A stretch of 40,875 nucleotides of DNA from Escherichia phage vB_EcoP-R1. Location: the sequence record OQ703102.1. The stretch is one strand, 5' to 3'. The notes below the pieces were generated by a model. That model was not told where the DNA came from. It saw only the letters and a list, made by a program, of their open reading frames with translations, and did no database searches. Made by a program: the position numbers and the translations under genes. Numbering within the stretch: the first letter of the stretch is position 1; every line of letters starts with the position of its first letter. Positions 1 through 40,875 of the stretch are shown piece after piece.

Positions 1-394
1 GACGGGTCAGAATGTCGCGATACAGCGCCTGACGGTGCGTTTCGTCATGGGTCGCCAGCACTTCGCCGATCTCTTTATCAATCAGCGGCTTGTCGGCTAA
101 ACCTTGCTGTGCCTGGAAGTCAGCGTGCGACGGTACGCGCATTGAACTCAGGAAGGCGTGTGGATCGTATGGCGCGCCCCAGGTGCGGTGGAAAATCATG
201 CCAAAACGACCGTCGCGCTGACGAGCATAGATACTGCTCTCTTCTTCGCCAATCAGCGAGACATCTGCGCCAATCTGGCGCATATCAGCCTGAATGATTT
301 CCGCCATCGATTTGCTTAACGCATCGGTGCCGATGAACGACAGTTCAATGCGCAGCGGCTGACCATTTTTCTCGCGGATGTCTTTGCCAGCAGG
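1..394 (-). CDS. nikA: Internal fragment of a periplasmic solute-binding protein (SBP family 5, nickel-binding NikA-like); truncated by the window edge and by the junction with phage DNA
   Basis: Minus-strand frame open across 1-394, translating ...PAGKDIREKNGQPLRIELSFIGTDALSK...RDGRFGMIFHRTWGAPYDPHAFLSSMRVPSHADFQAQQGLADKPLIDKEIGEVLATHDETHRQALYRDILTR, which matches my recollection of E. coli NikA; GC-rich enterobacterial codon usage; no start or stop inside the window. The six-frame track misses it because it runs off the window. Confidence 0.55.
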
Positions 395-461: not shown

Positions 462-1511
462 ATGGCAAACGTTCCGGGTCAGAAATTAGGTACAGACCAA
501 GGTAAAGGCAAATCTGGTTCCGACGCTCTGGCGTTGTTCCTGAAGGTCTTTGCTGGCGAAGTCCTGACCGCATTCACTCGCCGCTCTGTAACTGCTGACA
601 AGCATATTGTCCGTACAATTCAGAACGGTAAGTCTGCTCAGTTCCCGGTCATGGGTCGCACCTCTGGTGTGTATCTGGCTCCGGGTGAGCGACTGTCCGA
701 TAAGCGCAAAGGTATCAAACATACCGAGAAAGTAATTACCATTGATGGTCTGCTGACTGCCGATGTGATGATTTTCGACATTGAAGACGCGATGAACCAC
801 TATGACGTGGCTGGTGAGTATTCCAACCAGTTGGGTGAAGCTCTGGCTATCGCTGCTGATGGTGCGGTTCTGGCTGAAACGGCTCTCCTGTGTAACCTCC
901 CAGCTGCATCCAACGAGAACATCGCGGGTCTGGGCACTGCGTCCGTACTGGAAGTTGGTAAGAAAGCTGACCTCAACACCCCGGCTAAACTGGGCGAAGC
1001 AATCATCGGTCAACTGACCATCGCTCGTGCGAAGCTGACCTCCAACTACGTTCCTGCTGGCGACCGTTATTTCTATACAACGCCGGACAACTACTCTGCA
1101 ATCCTCGCGGCTCTGATGCCGAACGCTGCTAACTATGCTGCGCTGATTGATCCAGAGACTGGTAACATCCGTAACGTGATGGGCTTCGTTGTTGTTGAAG
1201 TTCCGCATCTGGTACAGGGTGGCGCTGGTGAGACCCGTGGTGCCGATGGTATCTCTATCGCTTCCGGCCAGAAACACGCATTCCCAGCAACTGCTACTGG
1301 CGACGTTAAAGTTGCTATGGATAACGTTGTGGGTCTGTTCTCTCACCGTTCTGCTGTGGGTACTGTGAAGCTGCGTGACTTGGCGCTGGAACGTGACCGT
1401 GACGTCGATGCTCAGGGCGACCTGATTGTCGGTAAATACGCTATGGGTCACGGTGGTCTGCGTCCTGAAGCGGCGGGTGCGCTGGTTTTCACAGCAGCGT
1501 CAGCGGTCTAA
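462..1511 (+). CDS. 10A: Major capsid protein (T7 gp10A homolog)
   Basis: 349 aa; MANVPGQKLGTDQGKGK...LALFLKVFAGEVLTAF...KHTEKVITIDGLLTADV...DIEDAMNHYDV...KYAMGHGGLRPEAAG closely parallels T7 gp10A; RBS AGGAG 8-10 nt upstream. Confidence 0.95.
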   Translation: MANVPGQKLGTDQGKGKSGSDALALFLKVFAGEVLTAFTRRSVTADKHIVRTIQNGKSAQFPVMGRTSGVYLAPGERLSDKRKGIKHTEKVITIDGLLTADVMIFDIEDAMNHYDVAGEYSNQLGEALAIAADGAVLAETALLCNLPAASNENIAGLGTASVLEVGKKADLNTPAKLGEAIIGQLTIARAKLTSNYVPAGDRYFYTTPDNYSAILAALMPNAANYAALIDPETGNIRNVMGFVVVEVPHLVQGGAGETRGADGISIASGQKHAFPATATGDVKVAMDNVVGLFSHRSAVGTVKLRDLALERDRDVDAQGDLIVGKYAMGHGGLRPEAAGALVFTAASAV

Positions 1512-12226: not shown

Positions 12227-14758
12227 ATGTCCACGATTACACAATTCCCTTCAGGAAACACTCAGTACAGGATTGAGTTCGACTACCTAGCCAGAACGTT
12301 TGTTGTTGTTACGCTGGTGAATAGCTCTAACCCTACCCTGAACCGTGTACTGGAAGTTGGTCGAGATTACCGATTCCTTAACCCAACGATGATTGAGATG
12401 TTGGTTGACCAATCAGGTTTCGACATCGTTCGTATTCACCGTCAGACTGGAACTGACTTAGTGGTAGACTTCAGGAATGGCTCAGTGTTGACAGCTAGTG
12501 ACCTGACCAATTCAGAGCTTCAGGCTATCCATATTGCAGAAGAAGGTCGAGACCAAACGGTTGACTTAGCGAAGGAATATGCCGATGCTGCTGGTAGCTC
12601 TGCTGGCAACGCTAAGGATAGCGAGGACGAAGCACGCCGAATCGCTGCGAGTATCAGGGAAGCTGGTCTAATTGGCTATATTACCCGTCGCTCCTTCGAG
12701 AAAGGCTACAACGTTACAACATGGAGCGAGGTCCTGCTATGGGAAGAGGATGGTGATTATTACCGCTGGGATGGTACGCTTCCAAAGAACGTTCCTGCTG
12801 GTTCAACTCCTGAAACTTCCGGTGGGATTGGATTAGGTTCGTGGGTTAGTGTTGGTGATGCTGCTTTAAGAAGTCAGATTTCAAACCCGGAAGGGGCAAT
12901 ACTCTACCCGGAATTGCAGATGGCAAGATGGCGTGATGATGGTGATGTTCGAGGCTGGGGTGCTAAAGGGGATGGTGTAACAGATAGTACGGAGAATATA
13001 GCTGCTTCACTAAATTCTCAAAAAGCTGTCGTAGCATCAGAAGGTGTATTCTCTAGTTCTGGTATTAATAGTAATTACTGTAACTTAGACGGCAGAGGCA
13101 GTGGTGTACTAAGTCACCGTTCCAGTACAGGTAACTACTTAGTATTTAACAATCCACGTACAGGTCGCTTAAGTAATATTACGGTAGAAAGTAATAAGGC
13201 GACGGATACCACTCAGGGACAGCAGGTATCTCTTGCTGGTGGCAGTGATGTTACGGTAAGTGACGTTAACTTCTCAAACGTTAAAGGTACTGGTTTCAGT
13301 TTAATCGCATACCCTAATGATGCGCCACCTGATGGGCTTATGATTAAAGGCATTCGAGGTAGCTATTCCGGCTATGCCACTAATAAGGCGGCTGGATGCG
13401 TACTTGCTGACTCCTCAGTTAACTCCCTCATAGATAACGTCATTGCTAAGAACTACCCTCAGTTCGGAGCTGTAGAGCTGAAAGGTACAGCCAGTTACAA
13501 CATAGTTAGTAATGTTATAGGGACAGATTGCCAGCATGTAACCTACAACGGTACTGAAGGGTCAATAGCTCCTTCTAATAACCTTATCAAGGGGGTAGTT
13601 GCTAATAATCCTAAGTATGCAGCGGTTGTTGCAGGCAAAGGTAGTACGAACTTAATATCAGACGTGCTCGTAGATTACTCAACCTCTGATGCTAGGCAGG
13701 CTCATGGTGCTACAGTAGAAGGTTCTGATAACGTCATAAATAATGTGCTTATGACAGGGTGTGATGGTACTAACTCTTTAGGGCAAGCTCAAACTGCTAC
13801 AATTGCTCGCTTTATAGATACAGCTAATAACAACTATGCGTCTGTATTTCCTAGCTACAGTGCTACAGGTGTTATTACTTTCGAATCAGGTTCTACCCGT
13901 AACTTCGTAGAGGTAAAGCATCCGGGAAGGAGAAACGACCTTCTCAGTGCTACTGGTACTATTAGCGGTGCAGATACTATTGACGGCACTAATAATAGCA
14001 ACGTAGTGCACGCCCCTGCATTAGGGCAGTACATAGGCAGTATGTCCGGTAGGTTCGAATGGCGGATTAAGTCCATGTCACTTCCATCAGGGGTTCTTAC
14101 CTCTGCGGATAAGTACAGGATGCTTGCCGATGAGGCTGTGTCATTAGCTGTAGGCGGAGGTACTTCTTCTCAAGTACGCCTGTTCACTTCTGACGGCACT
14201 TATCGGAATATATCACTTACTAGGGGTAACGTGCGTCTTCCTACCAGTAGCACAGGTTATTTGCAGTTAGGTTCTAATGCAATGACACCAGATAGTACTA
14301 ATACATACGCATTAGGTTCCGCAAGTCGAGCATGGTCTGGCGGTTTTACTCAATCAGCATTCACTGTTGTCTCAGATGCTAGGGATAAAACAGAGCCTCT
14401 TAATATCTCAGATGCTTTACTGGATGCTTGGTCTGAAGTTGACTTTGTGCAGTTTCAGTACTTGGACCGAATTGAGGAGAAGGGTGCAGACTCAGCTAGA
14501 TGGCACTTCGGCATCATCGCTCAGCGAGCTAAGGAGGCCTTCGAACGTCACGGTATAGATGCACATCGCTATGGCTTCCTGTGCTTCGACAGTTGGGATG
14601 ATGTATACGAGGAAGATGCCAATGGCTCTCGTAAACTGATTACACCAGCAGGTTCCCGCTACGGTATTCGTTACGAGGAAGTACTGATATTAGAGGCTGC
14701 GTTGATGCGGCGTACTATTAAGCGTATGCAGGAAGCATTAGCTGTTATGTCTAAGTGA
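12227..14758 (+). CDS. 17: Tailspike/tail fiber: T7 gp17-like N-terminal adaptor, pectate-lyase-type beta-helix (putative polysaccharide depolymerase), C-terminal intramolecular chaperone (peptidase S74-like)
   Basis: 843 aa. N-terminal about 150 aa resembles the gp17 tail-attachment domain; GAKGDGVTD motif at aa 245-253 (nt 12959-12985) is the hallmark of pectate-lyase-3 type tailspikes; C-terminal about 128 aa (from SDARDK at nt 14372; ...WHFGIIAQRAKEAF...) resembles the auto-cleaved chaperone domain of endosialidase-type tailspikes. Confidence 0.85.
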   Translation: MSTITQFPSGNTQYRIEFDYLARTFVVVTLVNSSNPTLNRVLEVGRDYRFLNPTMIEMLVDQSGFDIVRIHRQTGTDLVVDFRNGSVLTASDLTNSELQAIHIAEEGRDQTVDLAKEYADAAGSSAGNAKDSEDEARRIAASIREAGLIGYITRRSFEKGYNVTTWSEVLLWEEDGDYYRWDGTLPKNVPAGSTPETSGGIGLGSWVSVGDAALRSQISNPEGAILYPELQMARWRDDGDVRGWGAKGDGVTDSTENIAASLNSQKAVVASEGVFSSSGINSNYCNLDGRGSGVLSHRSSTGNYLVFNNPRTGRLSNITVESNKATDTTQGQQVSLAGGSDVTVSDVNFSNVKGTGFSLIAYPNDAPPDGLMIKGIRGSYSGYATNKAAGCVLADSSVNSLIDNVIAKNYPQFGAVELKGTASYNIVSNVIGTDCQHVTYNGTEGSIAPSNNLIKGVVANNPKYAAVVAGKGSTNLISDVLVDYSTSDARQAHGATVEGSDNVINNVLMTGCDGTNSLGQAQTATIARFIDTANNNYASVFPSYSATGVITFESGSTRNFVEVKHPGRRNDLLSATGTISGADTIDGTNNSNVVHAPALGQYIGSMSGRFEWRIKSMSLPSGVLTSADKYRMLADEAVSLAVGGGTSSQVRLFTSDGTYRNISLTRGNVRLPTSSTGYLQLGSNAMTPDSTNTYALGSASRAWSGGFTQSAFTVVSDARDKTEPLNISDALLDAWSEVDFVQFQYLDRIEEKGADSARWHFGIIAQRAKEAFERHGIDAHRYGFLCFDSWDDVYEEDANGSRKLITPAGSRYGIRYEEVLILEAALMRRTIKRMQEALAVMSK

Positions 14759-15317: not shown

Positions 15318-15321
15318 GTGT

Positions 15322-15366
15322 TAGACTCAAGGTCATTACTATGTGTAGTGGCCTTTATGGTTAACA
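15322..15366 (+). promoter_or_regulatory. RNase III-type processing hairpin (R18.5-like)
   Basis: TTAGACTCAAGGTCAT...GTGGCCTTTATGGTTAA; one of three near-identical copies (also 24159 and 31550); resembles the conserved GTGGCCTTTATGATT element of T7 RNase III sites. Confidence 0.5.
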
Positions 15367-15418
15367 CTAACTAGTGGAGGAGACTCTACGTGAAATCTGA
15401 TAAACCGGGAGGGCAACT

Positions 15419-18355: not shown

Positions 18356-18550
18356 TCTCACAGTTCAAGAACCTCAAGTCTCCCCATAGGCCCTCTTTCA
18401 GTCCAGACCAAAGGCCCTACCCCAGTCTATCATAAGGTTAGACCGATGGTCAAGACGTTAGGTCAACGATAGGTCTAGGCTATGGCTTAGGGAAGGACGA
18501 TAGGTAGGGACTATGGGTCTGTCTCTGAGTCTCTATCTGTATAGTGATAT
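18356..18550 (+). repeat. Genome terminal repeat region (single copy at the joined right-end/left-end junction)
   Basis: TCTCACAGTTCAAGAACCTCAAGTCTCCCCATAGG... closely resembles the first bases of the T7 left end (TCTCACAGTGTACGGACCTAAAGT...); the stretch ...GTCTCTGAGTCTCTATCTGT near 18520-18540 resembles the end of the T7 terminal repeat. Boundaries approximate. Confidence 0.5.
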
Positions 18551-24138: not shown

Positions 24139-24161
24139 CCTAAACTATCACTATAGGATTA
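24139..24161 (+). promoter_or_regulatory. Phage RNAP promoter (phi1.1-like)
   Basis: ACCTAAACTATCACTATAGGATT; +1 G at 24156. Confidence 0.8.
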
Positions 24162-24206
24162 GACTCAAGGTCATGACTCAAAGTCGTGGCCTTCATGATT
24201 AACCCT
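24159..24206 (+). promoter_or_regulatory. RNase III-type processing hairpin (R1.1-like)
   Basis: TTAGACTCAAGGTCATGACTCAAAGTCGTGGCCTTCATGATTAACC; near-identical to the copies at 15322 and 31550. Confidence 0.5.
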
Positions 24207-24231
24207 AACTCATTCAATCAGGAGCTACACC

Positions 24232-37448: not shown

Positions 37449-37689
37449 ATCAATCAGTAAGGCCTTCAAGAAAGTGGTGAAAAGTACGTTAGGGACCGTT
37501 GGTCTTGGCTCTGATGACGCGCCTAAGGTTGTTGAGGCTAAGACCCCAGCAGCACCAGTGGAAGTACCGAACGACAAAGTGGAGGATGTGGATACTGAAG
37601 CAACCGCATCTGATGAGAAGAAAGTGAAGCGTTCCGGTAAGCGTAGCCTTCAGGTCTCTCGCACCTCTGGTGGCGGTATTTCTATATGA
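37441..37689 (+). CDS. 7.3: gp7.3-like tail/virion protein
   Basis: 82 aa, Lys/Ala/Val-rich, ends ...RSLQVSRTSGGGISI (T7 gp7.3 ends similarly as I recall); GTG start. Confidence 0.65.
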   Translation: MGKSISKAFKKVVKSTLGTVGLGSDDAPKVVEAKTPAAPVEVPNDKVEDVDTEATASDEKKVKRSGKRSLQVSRTSGGGISI

Positions 37690-38102
37690 CAGGGTGCATC
37701 GAGTGGAAGTGGGCCAAATCCTCAGCAGGATACGGGCAGAAGCGTATAGACGGTAAGTTAGTGTATATGCACCGACTCGCTTACGCCGATGCACATGGGC
37801 CAATACCAGACGGAATGCTCGTCCGTCATAAGTGTGATAATCCAGCATGTTTTAACGTAAACCACTTAGAGTTAGGAACTCAGCGTGATAACATGCAGGA
37901 CGCCTCAAAGCGTGGTCGAGTCAATAAAACCAAAATGGCTAGAGGTGAGGACCAAGGGTTATCGGTTTTAACAGAAGACCTTGTTCGAGAAATCCGCAAG
38001 TCAACAGTAGGTTGTACAACACTGGCTCGTGAGCTGGGCGTTAGCAAGTCTACAGTTTTGCGGGTTCGCCAAGGTAAAACATGGAGGCACGTAGATGGCT
38101 GA
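37686..38102 (+). CDS. HNH endonuclease with C-terminal helix-turn-helix (gene 7.7 position)
   Basis: 138 aa; ...GYGQKRIDGKLVYMHRLAYADAHGPIPDGMLVRHKCDNPACFNVNHLELGTQRDN... HNH core; C-terminal ...TLARELGVSKSTVLRVRQGKTW is HTH-like. Confidence 0.75.
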   Translation: MTGCIEWKWAKSSAGYGQKRIDGKLVYMHRLAYADAHGPIPDGMLVRHKCDNPACFNVNHLELGTQRDNMQDASKRGRVNKTKMARGEDQGLSVLTEDLVREIRKSTVGCTTLARELGVSKSTVLRVRQGKTWRHVDG

Positions 38103-39760: not shown

Positions 39761-40605
39761 ATGTCTCAATCAGTTTATGCCGAGTTCGGCGTTAGCTCTA
39801 ATGCAATCACTGGTTCCGTTGAGGACCTGAACGAACACCAGAAGTCTATGCTTGAACAGGACGTAGCTGTTCGTGATGGCGACGACGCTATTACTTTCAA
39901 GCAACTGGAAGCCGAAAACGAAGAGGCGACCGAAGAAGACGAGAACGTCGAAGAGACTGAAGGTGAAGAAGACCACGAGTCCGATGACGAAGAGTCTGAG
40001 ACCGATGGTGAGCAGCCTGAGTTCATCGAACTGGGTGATGCACCAAAAGAGCTGACCGAAAGTGTCACCGCTCTGGATGAAAACGAAGCTGCATTCGACG
40101 ACATGGTGTCTTCTGCTGTAGAAGCTGGCAAGGTCACTGCTGATGAAATTACCGCTATCAAGGCTGAATACGCCAAGGACGGTAAGCTGTCTGACGCATC
40201 CTACGCTAAGTTGCAGGAAGCAGGTTACACCAAGCGTTTCGTAGATTCGTTTGTCCGTGGTCAGGAAGCTCTTGCTGAACAGTATGCTGCTGGTGTGGTT
40301 CGCTACGCTGGTGGTGCTGAACAGTTTAATCGCATCCTGTCACACCTTGAGTCCAACGACCCGTCAACTCGTGAAGCACTGGAAGCTGCTATCGTTCGTA
40401 AGGACATTGCGACTACCAAAGCTCTGCTGAATCTGGCTGGCAAGACTCTGGGTAAAGCTGTAGGTGTTAAACCTCAGCGAACCATCACCACTCAGGCTAA
40501 ACCTGTGGTCGCACCTAAGGCTCCTCAGACCGAAGCATTCAGCTCCAAGGCTGACATGATTAAGGCTATGAGTGACCCGCGATACCTGCGTGACGCTAAG
40601 TACAC
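39761..40605 (+). CDS. 9: Scaffolding protein (gp9 homolog), 3-prime truncated and fused in-frame to non-phage sequence
   Basis: MSQSVYAEFGVSSNAITGSVEDL...VRDGDDAI..., acidic EEDE-rich region, ...FVRGQEALAEQY...AMSDPRY parallel T7 gp9; no stop codon, and after about 40605 the translation no longer looks like gp9. Confidence 0.85.
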
Positions 40606-40843
40606 GGTGTTTAGTTTTCAGGCTGGCGCACTGGCAGGTGTGCAAATTGTTTCACAAGCTGCAAAACGCAGTGCCGATGGCGAGCTGCTGTTAGCGACCC
40701 GTAACCGCTTGAGTAGTGTTGTTCCACTGTCGCCAGACGCCTGGCAAATGTTGAGCGCGCCGTTGCGCCAGCCGGGCATTGTGGCTTTGCGGGAATATTT
40801 ACGCCAGCGTCCCCCCGCCTGCATACGACCACTCAACCAGGTC
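40606..40843 (+). other. Unidentified non-phage, GC-rich coding-like fragment (probable bacterial chromosomal DNA) joined in-frame to gene 9
   Basis: Open + frame ...LAGVQIVSQAAKRSADGELLLATRNRLSSVVPLSPDAWQMLSAPLRQPGIVALREYLRQRP... with GC content clearly higher than the phage; I cannot assign it from sequence alone. Confidence 0.3.
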
Positions 40844-40875
40844 AGATCGGAAGAGCGTCGTGTAGGGAAAGAGTG
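40844..40875 (+). other. Illumina TruSeq adapter sequence (AGATCGGAAGAGCGTCGTGTAGGGAAAGAGTG)
   Basis: Exact 32-nt match to the standard Illumina adapter read-through sequence at the extreme 3-prime end of the window. Confidence 0.95.

Follow-up and report, generated by a model that had tools for sequence, protein, structure and literature searches.

The window, the whole 40,875 nt stretch of record OQ703102.1, holds, at about 396–40609, the nearly complete genome of a Kayfunavirus-like (T7-like) phage, with an internal fragment of a different E. coli gene at each end and an Illumina adapter sequence behind the right-hand fragment (Table 1). About 900 GenBank phage records match the phage part, and the limits of all these matches are 396 on the left and 40606–40609 on the right. 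Among relatives in GenBank that span the greater part of each contig half, the best are Kayfunavirus genomes, with 93–95% identity. Gene order is the usual one, running from capsid through tail tube, internal virion proteins, tail spike, terminase, RNA polymerase, ligase, primase/helicase, DNA polymerase, exonuclease and portal to scaffold. Across 5426 complete E. coli genomes, we found no match to any part of 380–40620. Exact look-ups of the tail spike, portal and capsid proteins returned no recorded match.

Table 1. Features of the window in order of position, with the basis for each.
Feature	Position	Strand	Basis
nikA internal fragment (nickel ABC transporter substrate-binding protein)	1–394	-	CDS nt 1045–1438 of 1575
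Left junction base A	395	+	Neither nikA (C) nor six phage relatives (G)
Phage sequence resumes in gene 10 5' UTR	396	+	66 nt upstream of ATG at 462
Major capsid gene (gene 10)	462–1511	+	ORF list; relative annotates major head protein
RNA-polymerase promoter-like repeats, (C/T)TAAACTATCACTATAGG(A/G)	~4881, 12158, 17756, 20819, 24139, 25810, 27231, 29597, 36440, 39659 (approximate starts)	all +	
Collapsed direct terminal repeat, single copy	18356–18533	+	Homology to K1F direct terminal repeat, 178 bp
RNA polymerase	20911–23592		Gene-order survey
Portal	38095–39663		Gene-order survey
Gene 9, capsid assembly/scaffolding	39761–40606	+	Pfam PF05396 Phage_T7_Capsid, E=2.4e-64, residues 109–282
Right junction zone	40607–40609	+	Alignments with yehQ and six phage relatives
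yehQ internal fragment (SWIM zinc-finger family protein)	40610–40843 (from 40608 with the ambiguous TG)	+	CDS nt 1169–1404 of 2004
Illumina TruSeq adapter read-through	40844–40875	+	First 32 nt of AGATCGGAAGAGCGTCGTGTAGGGAAAGAGTGT; unique exact match

Comparison with K1F located the natural genome termini inside the contig. Nucleotide 1 of the K1F left end maps to 18356 and nucleotide 39704 of its right end maps to 18533. K1F right-end sequence enters the repeat between these positions, and K1F left-end sequence leaves it. The contig thus runs through the natural termini with the terminal repeat collapsed: a linear genome has been assembled in circularised, permuted form. The assembly graph was, in effect, circular, and its opening lies between genes 9 and 10.

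A short piece of phage DNA is absent at that opening. The two phage ends of the contig lie 96–101 nt apart in six relatives, and the intervening stretch is missing from the window. Gene 9 consequently stops 13 codons short, where relatives go on with ...YT M EVRAKVAASSL and a stop codon. Besides these last 13 scaffold codons (M-EVRAKVAASSL-stop), the stretch in relatives carries a phi10-type promoter, ACTAAACTATCACTATAGGGAGACC, and the 5' stem-loop of the capsid mRNA, GGGAGACC...GGTTTCCC. The missing ~96–101 nt are expected to be similar to ...ATGGAAGTTCGCGCTAAGGTAGCTGCCTCAAGCCTGTAGGACTAAACTATCACTATAGGGAGACC...CTTCAG. The promoter repeat CTAAACTATCACTATAGG has 10–11 copies in the window and another in the relatives' version of the missing stretch, and no copy of the relatives' phi10 promoter 23-mer occurs in the window with up to 3 mismatches. 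We set this repeat aside as a possible reason for the break, since exact sharing extends over about 20 nt, too short to interrupt most assemblies, the effect depending on the assembler's k.

The phage part holds several further features. The tail spike (12227–14758, 843 aa) combines T7 tail-fibre N-terminal, Tail_spike_N and C-terminal Peptidase_S74 chaperone domains. Pfam reported no endosialidase catalytic family in this protein, and it may recognise a different receptor from K1F. An ORF for an HNH_3 homing endonuclease (37686–38102, 138 aa) sits directly upstream of the portal start at 38095 and overlaps the portal gene; it is present in some relatives and absent in others, with matches beginning at query position 96 in several records. 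Separately, a 52 nt direct repeat, TTAGACTCAAGGTCAT...GGCCTT.ATG.TTAAC.CTAACT, occurs at 15321–15372 and 24159–24210 with 83% identity. Its second copy directly follows a promoter copy, and the repeat may represent either a transcript leader or a processing site that has been conserved.

Both ends of the contig are E. coli DNA. Megablast against the 5426 complete E. coli genomes identified the left end as part of nikA and the right end, up to the adapter, as part of yehQ. The nikA piece is matched in 5426/5426 genomes, with a best identity of 99.7%, and is identical to strain SK1144 (NZ_AP018784.2) at 393 of 394 positions. The yehQ piece, taken as 40608–40843, matches 5336 genomes and agrees with SK1144 at 235 of 236 positions; its best reported identity of 98.8% is a figure that counts two gapped alignment ends. 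In SK1144 the two matches lie at 272,251–272,644 (nikA) and 1,761,247–1,761,489 (yehQ), about 1.49 Mb apart. GC content is 0.561 in the nikA flank and 0.577 in the yehQ flank, against 0.498 in the phage part.

Each host piece carries one private mismatch. The G at window position 35, in nikA, occurs in none of the 5426 genomes, and the T at 40641, which changes Gly to Val in YehQ, occurs in no matching E. coli genome. Both probably reflect read errors left uncorrected where coverage was thin, and could also be true strain variants.

Alignment of the parental sequences placed each phage-host join to within a few bases. At the left join, nikA reads ...CAGCAGGCAGCG, the relatives ...ACTTCAGTCCATACGG and the window ...CAGCAGGATCCATACGG. 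At the right join, the relatives read ...TACACGATGGAAG, yehQ ...GTCGGCTGTTTAG and the window ...TACACGGTGTTTAG. The G at 40607 fits neither parent, with A in six relatives and C in yehQ, and the following TG at 40608–40609 is common to phage and yehQ. Overlap between the parents therefore amounts to at most 2 nt (TG) at the right join and 0 at the left. Because the parents share so little at the joins, a k-mer mis-join is excluded and physically chimeric reads are required. Instead of marking a join scar, the orphan base at each join (395 and 40607) could represent a SNP of the phage itself.

The joins are unrelated to one another and have no counterpart in the collections searched. Junction 32-mers from both joins were not found in IMG/VR, JGI metagenome contigs or GTDB species genomes. 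The junction sequences of the two ends are unrelated to each other, and a repeat scan with a 12 nt seed, covering lengths of at least 24 nt, found no direct repeat joining the two ends.

Two explanations of the bases at the joins were set aside. A BamHI site (GGATCC) spans the left join at 393–398 and might be taken for a cloning scar; nikA reads CAGGCAGC there and the phage relatives TTCAGTCC, so that neither parent has GATC at this place, and we regard the site as coincidence. Ligation of two A-tailed ends would fit the A at 395 and not the G at 40607, and as an account of the orphan bases it is speculation.

The final bases of the contig are sequencing adapter. Direct reading and an exact-pattern search both show 40844–40875 (+) to be AGATCGGAAGAGCGTCGTGTAGGGAAAGAGTG, with 32 of 32 positions matching and no mismatch. 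This is the start of TruSeq read-2 read-through, corresponding to the universal (i5) adapter read as its reverse complement, and it is oriented outward from the insert. The 33-mer that contains it, AGATCGGAAGAGCGTCGTGTAGGGAAAGAGTGT, is given in two papers under the names 'universal_i5_rev_comp' and 'read 2' Illumina adapter, for use in trimming. The 32-mer occurs once in the window when both strands are searched, even with 3 mismatches allowed. None of 100 dinucleotide-preserving shuffles of the window contained a match, and the chance expectation for this given 32-mer on both strands of 40,875 nt is about 4e-15. A search that allowed 2 mismatches found no further copy of the 13 nt adapter core in the window, and the window also lacks a Nextera mosaic end. 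The left contig end, 1–394, carries no adapter.

Host sequence gives way to adapter without an intervening base. Homology to yehQ ends at 40843, directly before the adapter, and beyond this point E. coli reads GATAAC where the window reads AGATCGG. The leading A of the adapter is the A-tail base, as expected for a ligation-type TruSeq library. One E. coli megablast match reached 4 nt into the adapter (to 40847); we discounted it as a gapped-alignment artefact in which GTC-GAT is set against GTCAGAT.

The same adapter sequence recurs sporadically in public collections. In IMG/VR, a scan for the 32-mer found at least 120 contigs with an exact copy. Among the matches listed, 115 of 122 face outward no more than 150 nt from a contig end and run on into the adapter remainder TAGATCTCGGTGGTCGCCGTATCATT. 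One 38.8 kb viral contig, IMGVR_UViG_3300045988_159093, carries two internal copies at 1142–1173 (+) and 1184–1215 (-) that face each other 10 nt apart; this pair suggests an adapter-dimer-like join and a chimeric contig. Exact copies are present in 6 of 50,697 GenBank phage records (PQ571273.1, KT254133.1, OU509537.1, MW202825.1, OR360270.1 and PQ462667.1), which are sporadic and belong to unrelated hosts and taxa; the window is not one of these records. Some copies sit inside the genome and overlap annotated CDSs, as at MW202825.1 6021–6052 and PQ462667.1 7574–7605.

Complete E. coli genomes (28 Gb) contain no full-length copy of the 32-mer. There is a single match of 28 nt, in E. coli AREA_R485 (NZ_CP123349.1, 702311–702338), a RefSeq 'complete' genome in which it falls inside fliI, annotated as a frameshifted pseudogene. 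It is probably an adapter-derived assembly error. A distribution of this kind marks the 32-mer as sporadic contamination of technical origin and not as a biological element. The earlier note had identified the last 32 nt as an exact TruSeq adapter and had taken them as direct evidence that untrimmed reads were assembled. The zero-mismatch match bears out the identification, and the terminal position of an exact adapter, together with its lack of any full-length match in 28 Gb of E. coli genomes, bears out the technical origin.

We consider it very probable that the two ends of the contig arose by adapter read-through together with chimeric inserts that extended the dead ends of a circular phage assembly. 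Under this explanation, a ligation-type Illumina library would have been made from a phage preparation or sample holding some E. coli DNA, and its reads assembled without adapter trimming. The terminally redundant linear phage DNA would have assembled as a circle whose closure failed over the ~96–101 nt between genes 9 and 10. Rare chimeric inserts would then have lengthened the two dead ends, phage plus nikA on the left and phage plus yehQ on the right. The right extension would have reached the end of a short insert and continued into 32 nt of adapter. The joins themselves were most likely made in vitro, by insert-to-insert ligation or by template switching in a ligation-type preparation, and read support at the contig tips would be very low. 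The adapter end is a known artefact and no biological feature.

These results refine how far the adapter can serve as evidence. The earlier note had declared everything beyond about 40605 untrustworthy; that conclusion stands with its coordinate moved, as the passage from phage to host lies at 40607–40609. The left end, 1–394, is equally untrustworthy, though it has no adapter. The adapter does demonstrate untrimmed reads and a library fragment ending at 40843, and alone it does not prove that the phage/yehQ join is artificial. The case for an artificial join rests instead on the distance between nikA and yehQ, the missing phage stretch, the homology of at most 2 nt, the absence of both junctions from three public collections and the absence of the phage from all 5426 complete E. 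coli genomes. Since the host flanks come from chimeric inserts and not from the adapter, adapter trimming would remove 40844–40875 but need not remove the flanks.

The best-surviving alternative places the joining in the infected cell. The joins might be rare in vivo illegitimate recombinants between replicating phage DNA and fragments from host-chromosome breakdown, caught in the library. T7-type infections degrade host DNA, and homology of 0–2 nt also suits end-joining or illegitimate recombination. The resulting molecules would be non-viable, missing both the capsid promoter and the final part of the scaffold gene; a different host locus is found at each end, and the junctions are absent from the collections searched. 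Moreover, the right piece meets the adapter after just 234–236 nt, a length that suggests a short insert in the library. Sequence alone cannot tell an in vivo recombinant from an in vitro chimera; in vitro chimeras are the far commoner source of such joins. We therefore hold recombination in the cell to be improbable and much less likely than library chimeras. A more specific version, in which replicating Kayfunavirus DNA, prone to break beside the strong gene-10 promoter, was end-joined there to pieces of the degraded E. coli chromosome, seems slightly less probable again.

It is very unlikely that the assembler mis-joined phage and host contigs through a shared repeat or by scaffolding, with no chimeric read involved. 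Assemblers do err in this way at contig ends. Against such an error, at most 2 nt are common at the joins, no E. coli-like sequence occurs within the phage part, and the window is free of the Ns that would mark scaffolding.

To an integrated prophage with real E. coli flanks, in which only the last 32 nt would be artefact, we give almost no credence: host genes do flank what looks like a complete phage genome on either side, and provirus-calling software would agree, but the flanks are internal pieces of two genes that are not neighbours, no end-linking direct repeat of at least 24 nt was found, the break deletes the capsid promoter together with the last part of an essential gene, a linear T7-like genome's natural terminal repeat sits inside the contig, none of the phage's DNA occurs in the complete E. 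coli genomes, and T7-like Studiervirinae are, to our knowledge, strictly lytic.

The artefactual ends have consequences for annotation. The yehQ piece keeps its native frame and is in frame with phage gene 9, and the outcome is a false ORF in which gp9 (283 aa) is fused to 78 aa of YehQ and an adapter peptide, RSEERRVGKE, and which remains open to the contig end. The false fusion protein ends ...PLNQVRSEERRVGKE. Such an ORF could reach protein databases and mislead host prediction or calls of auxiliary genes and horizontal transfer. Host genes at both ends would make provirus callers mislabel a strictly lytic T7-like phage. The relevance of the case is thus one of quality control only, and with at least 120 examples in IMG/VR, adapter-ended contigs are widespread among public viral contigs. 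The contig is best trimmed to about 396–40606, rotated to the 18356–18533 repeat, and flagged as ~96–101 nt short between genes 9 and 10.

Each component of the contig resembles a known artefact or a known genome. The right end matches TruSeq read-through left in other assemblies, which shows the same 32 nt in terminal position, pointing outward, with the A-tail base right after genomic homology; the window keeps 32 of 58 possible adapter bases, and the IMG/VR contigs listed keep 32–58. The joins resemble chimeric-insert artefacts in their 0–2 nt of homology, one unmatched base per join, a private mismatch in each of two unrelated host pieces and junctions absent from the public collections searched; such inserts are the probable mechanism. 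Compared with K1F and other Kayfunavirus genomes, the window is permuted, has one repeat collapsed, is ~96–101 nt short and carries foreign ends. With K1F and other members of this genus (Autographiviridae, Studiervirinae) it shares a colinear gene order and a 178 bp terminal repeat, and Pfam also places a T7-type scaffold, a tail-fibre N-terminal domain and an HNH endonuclease in the window.
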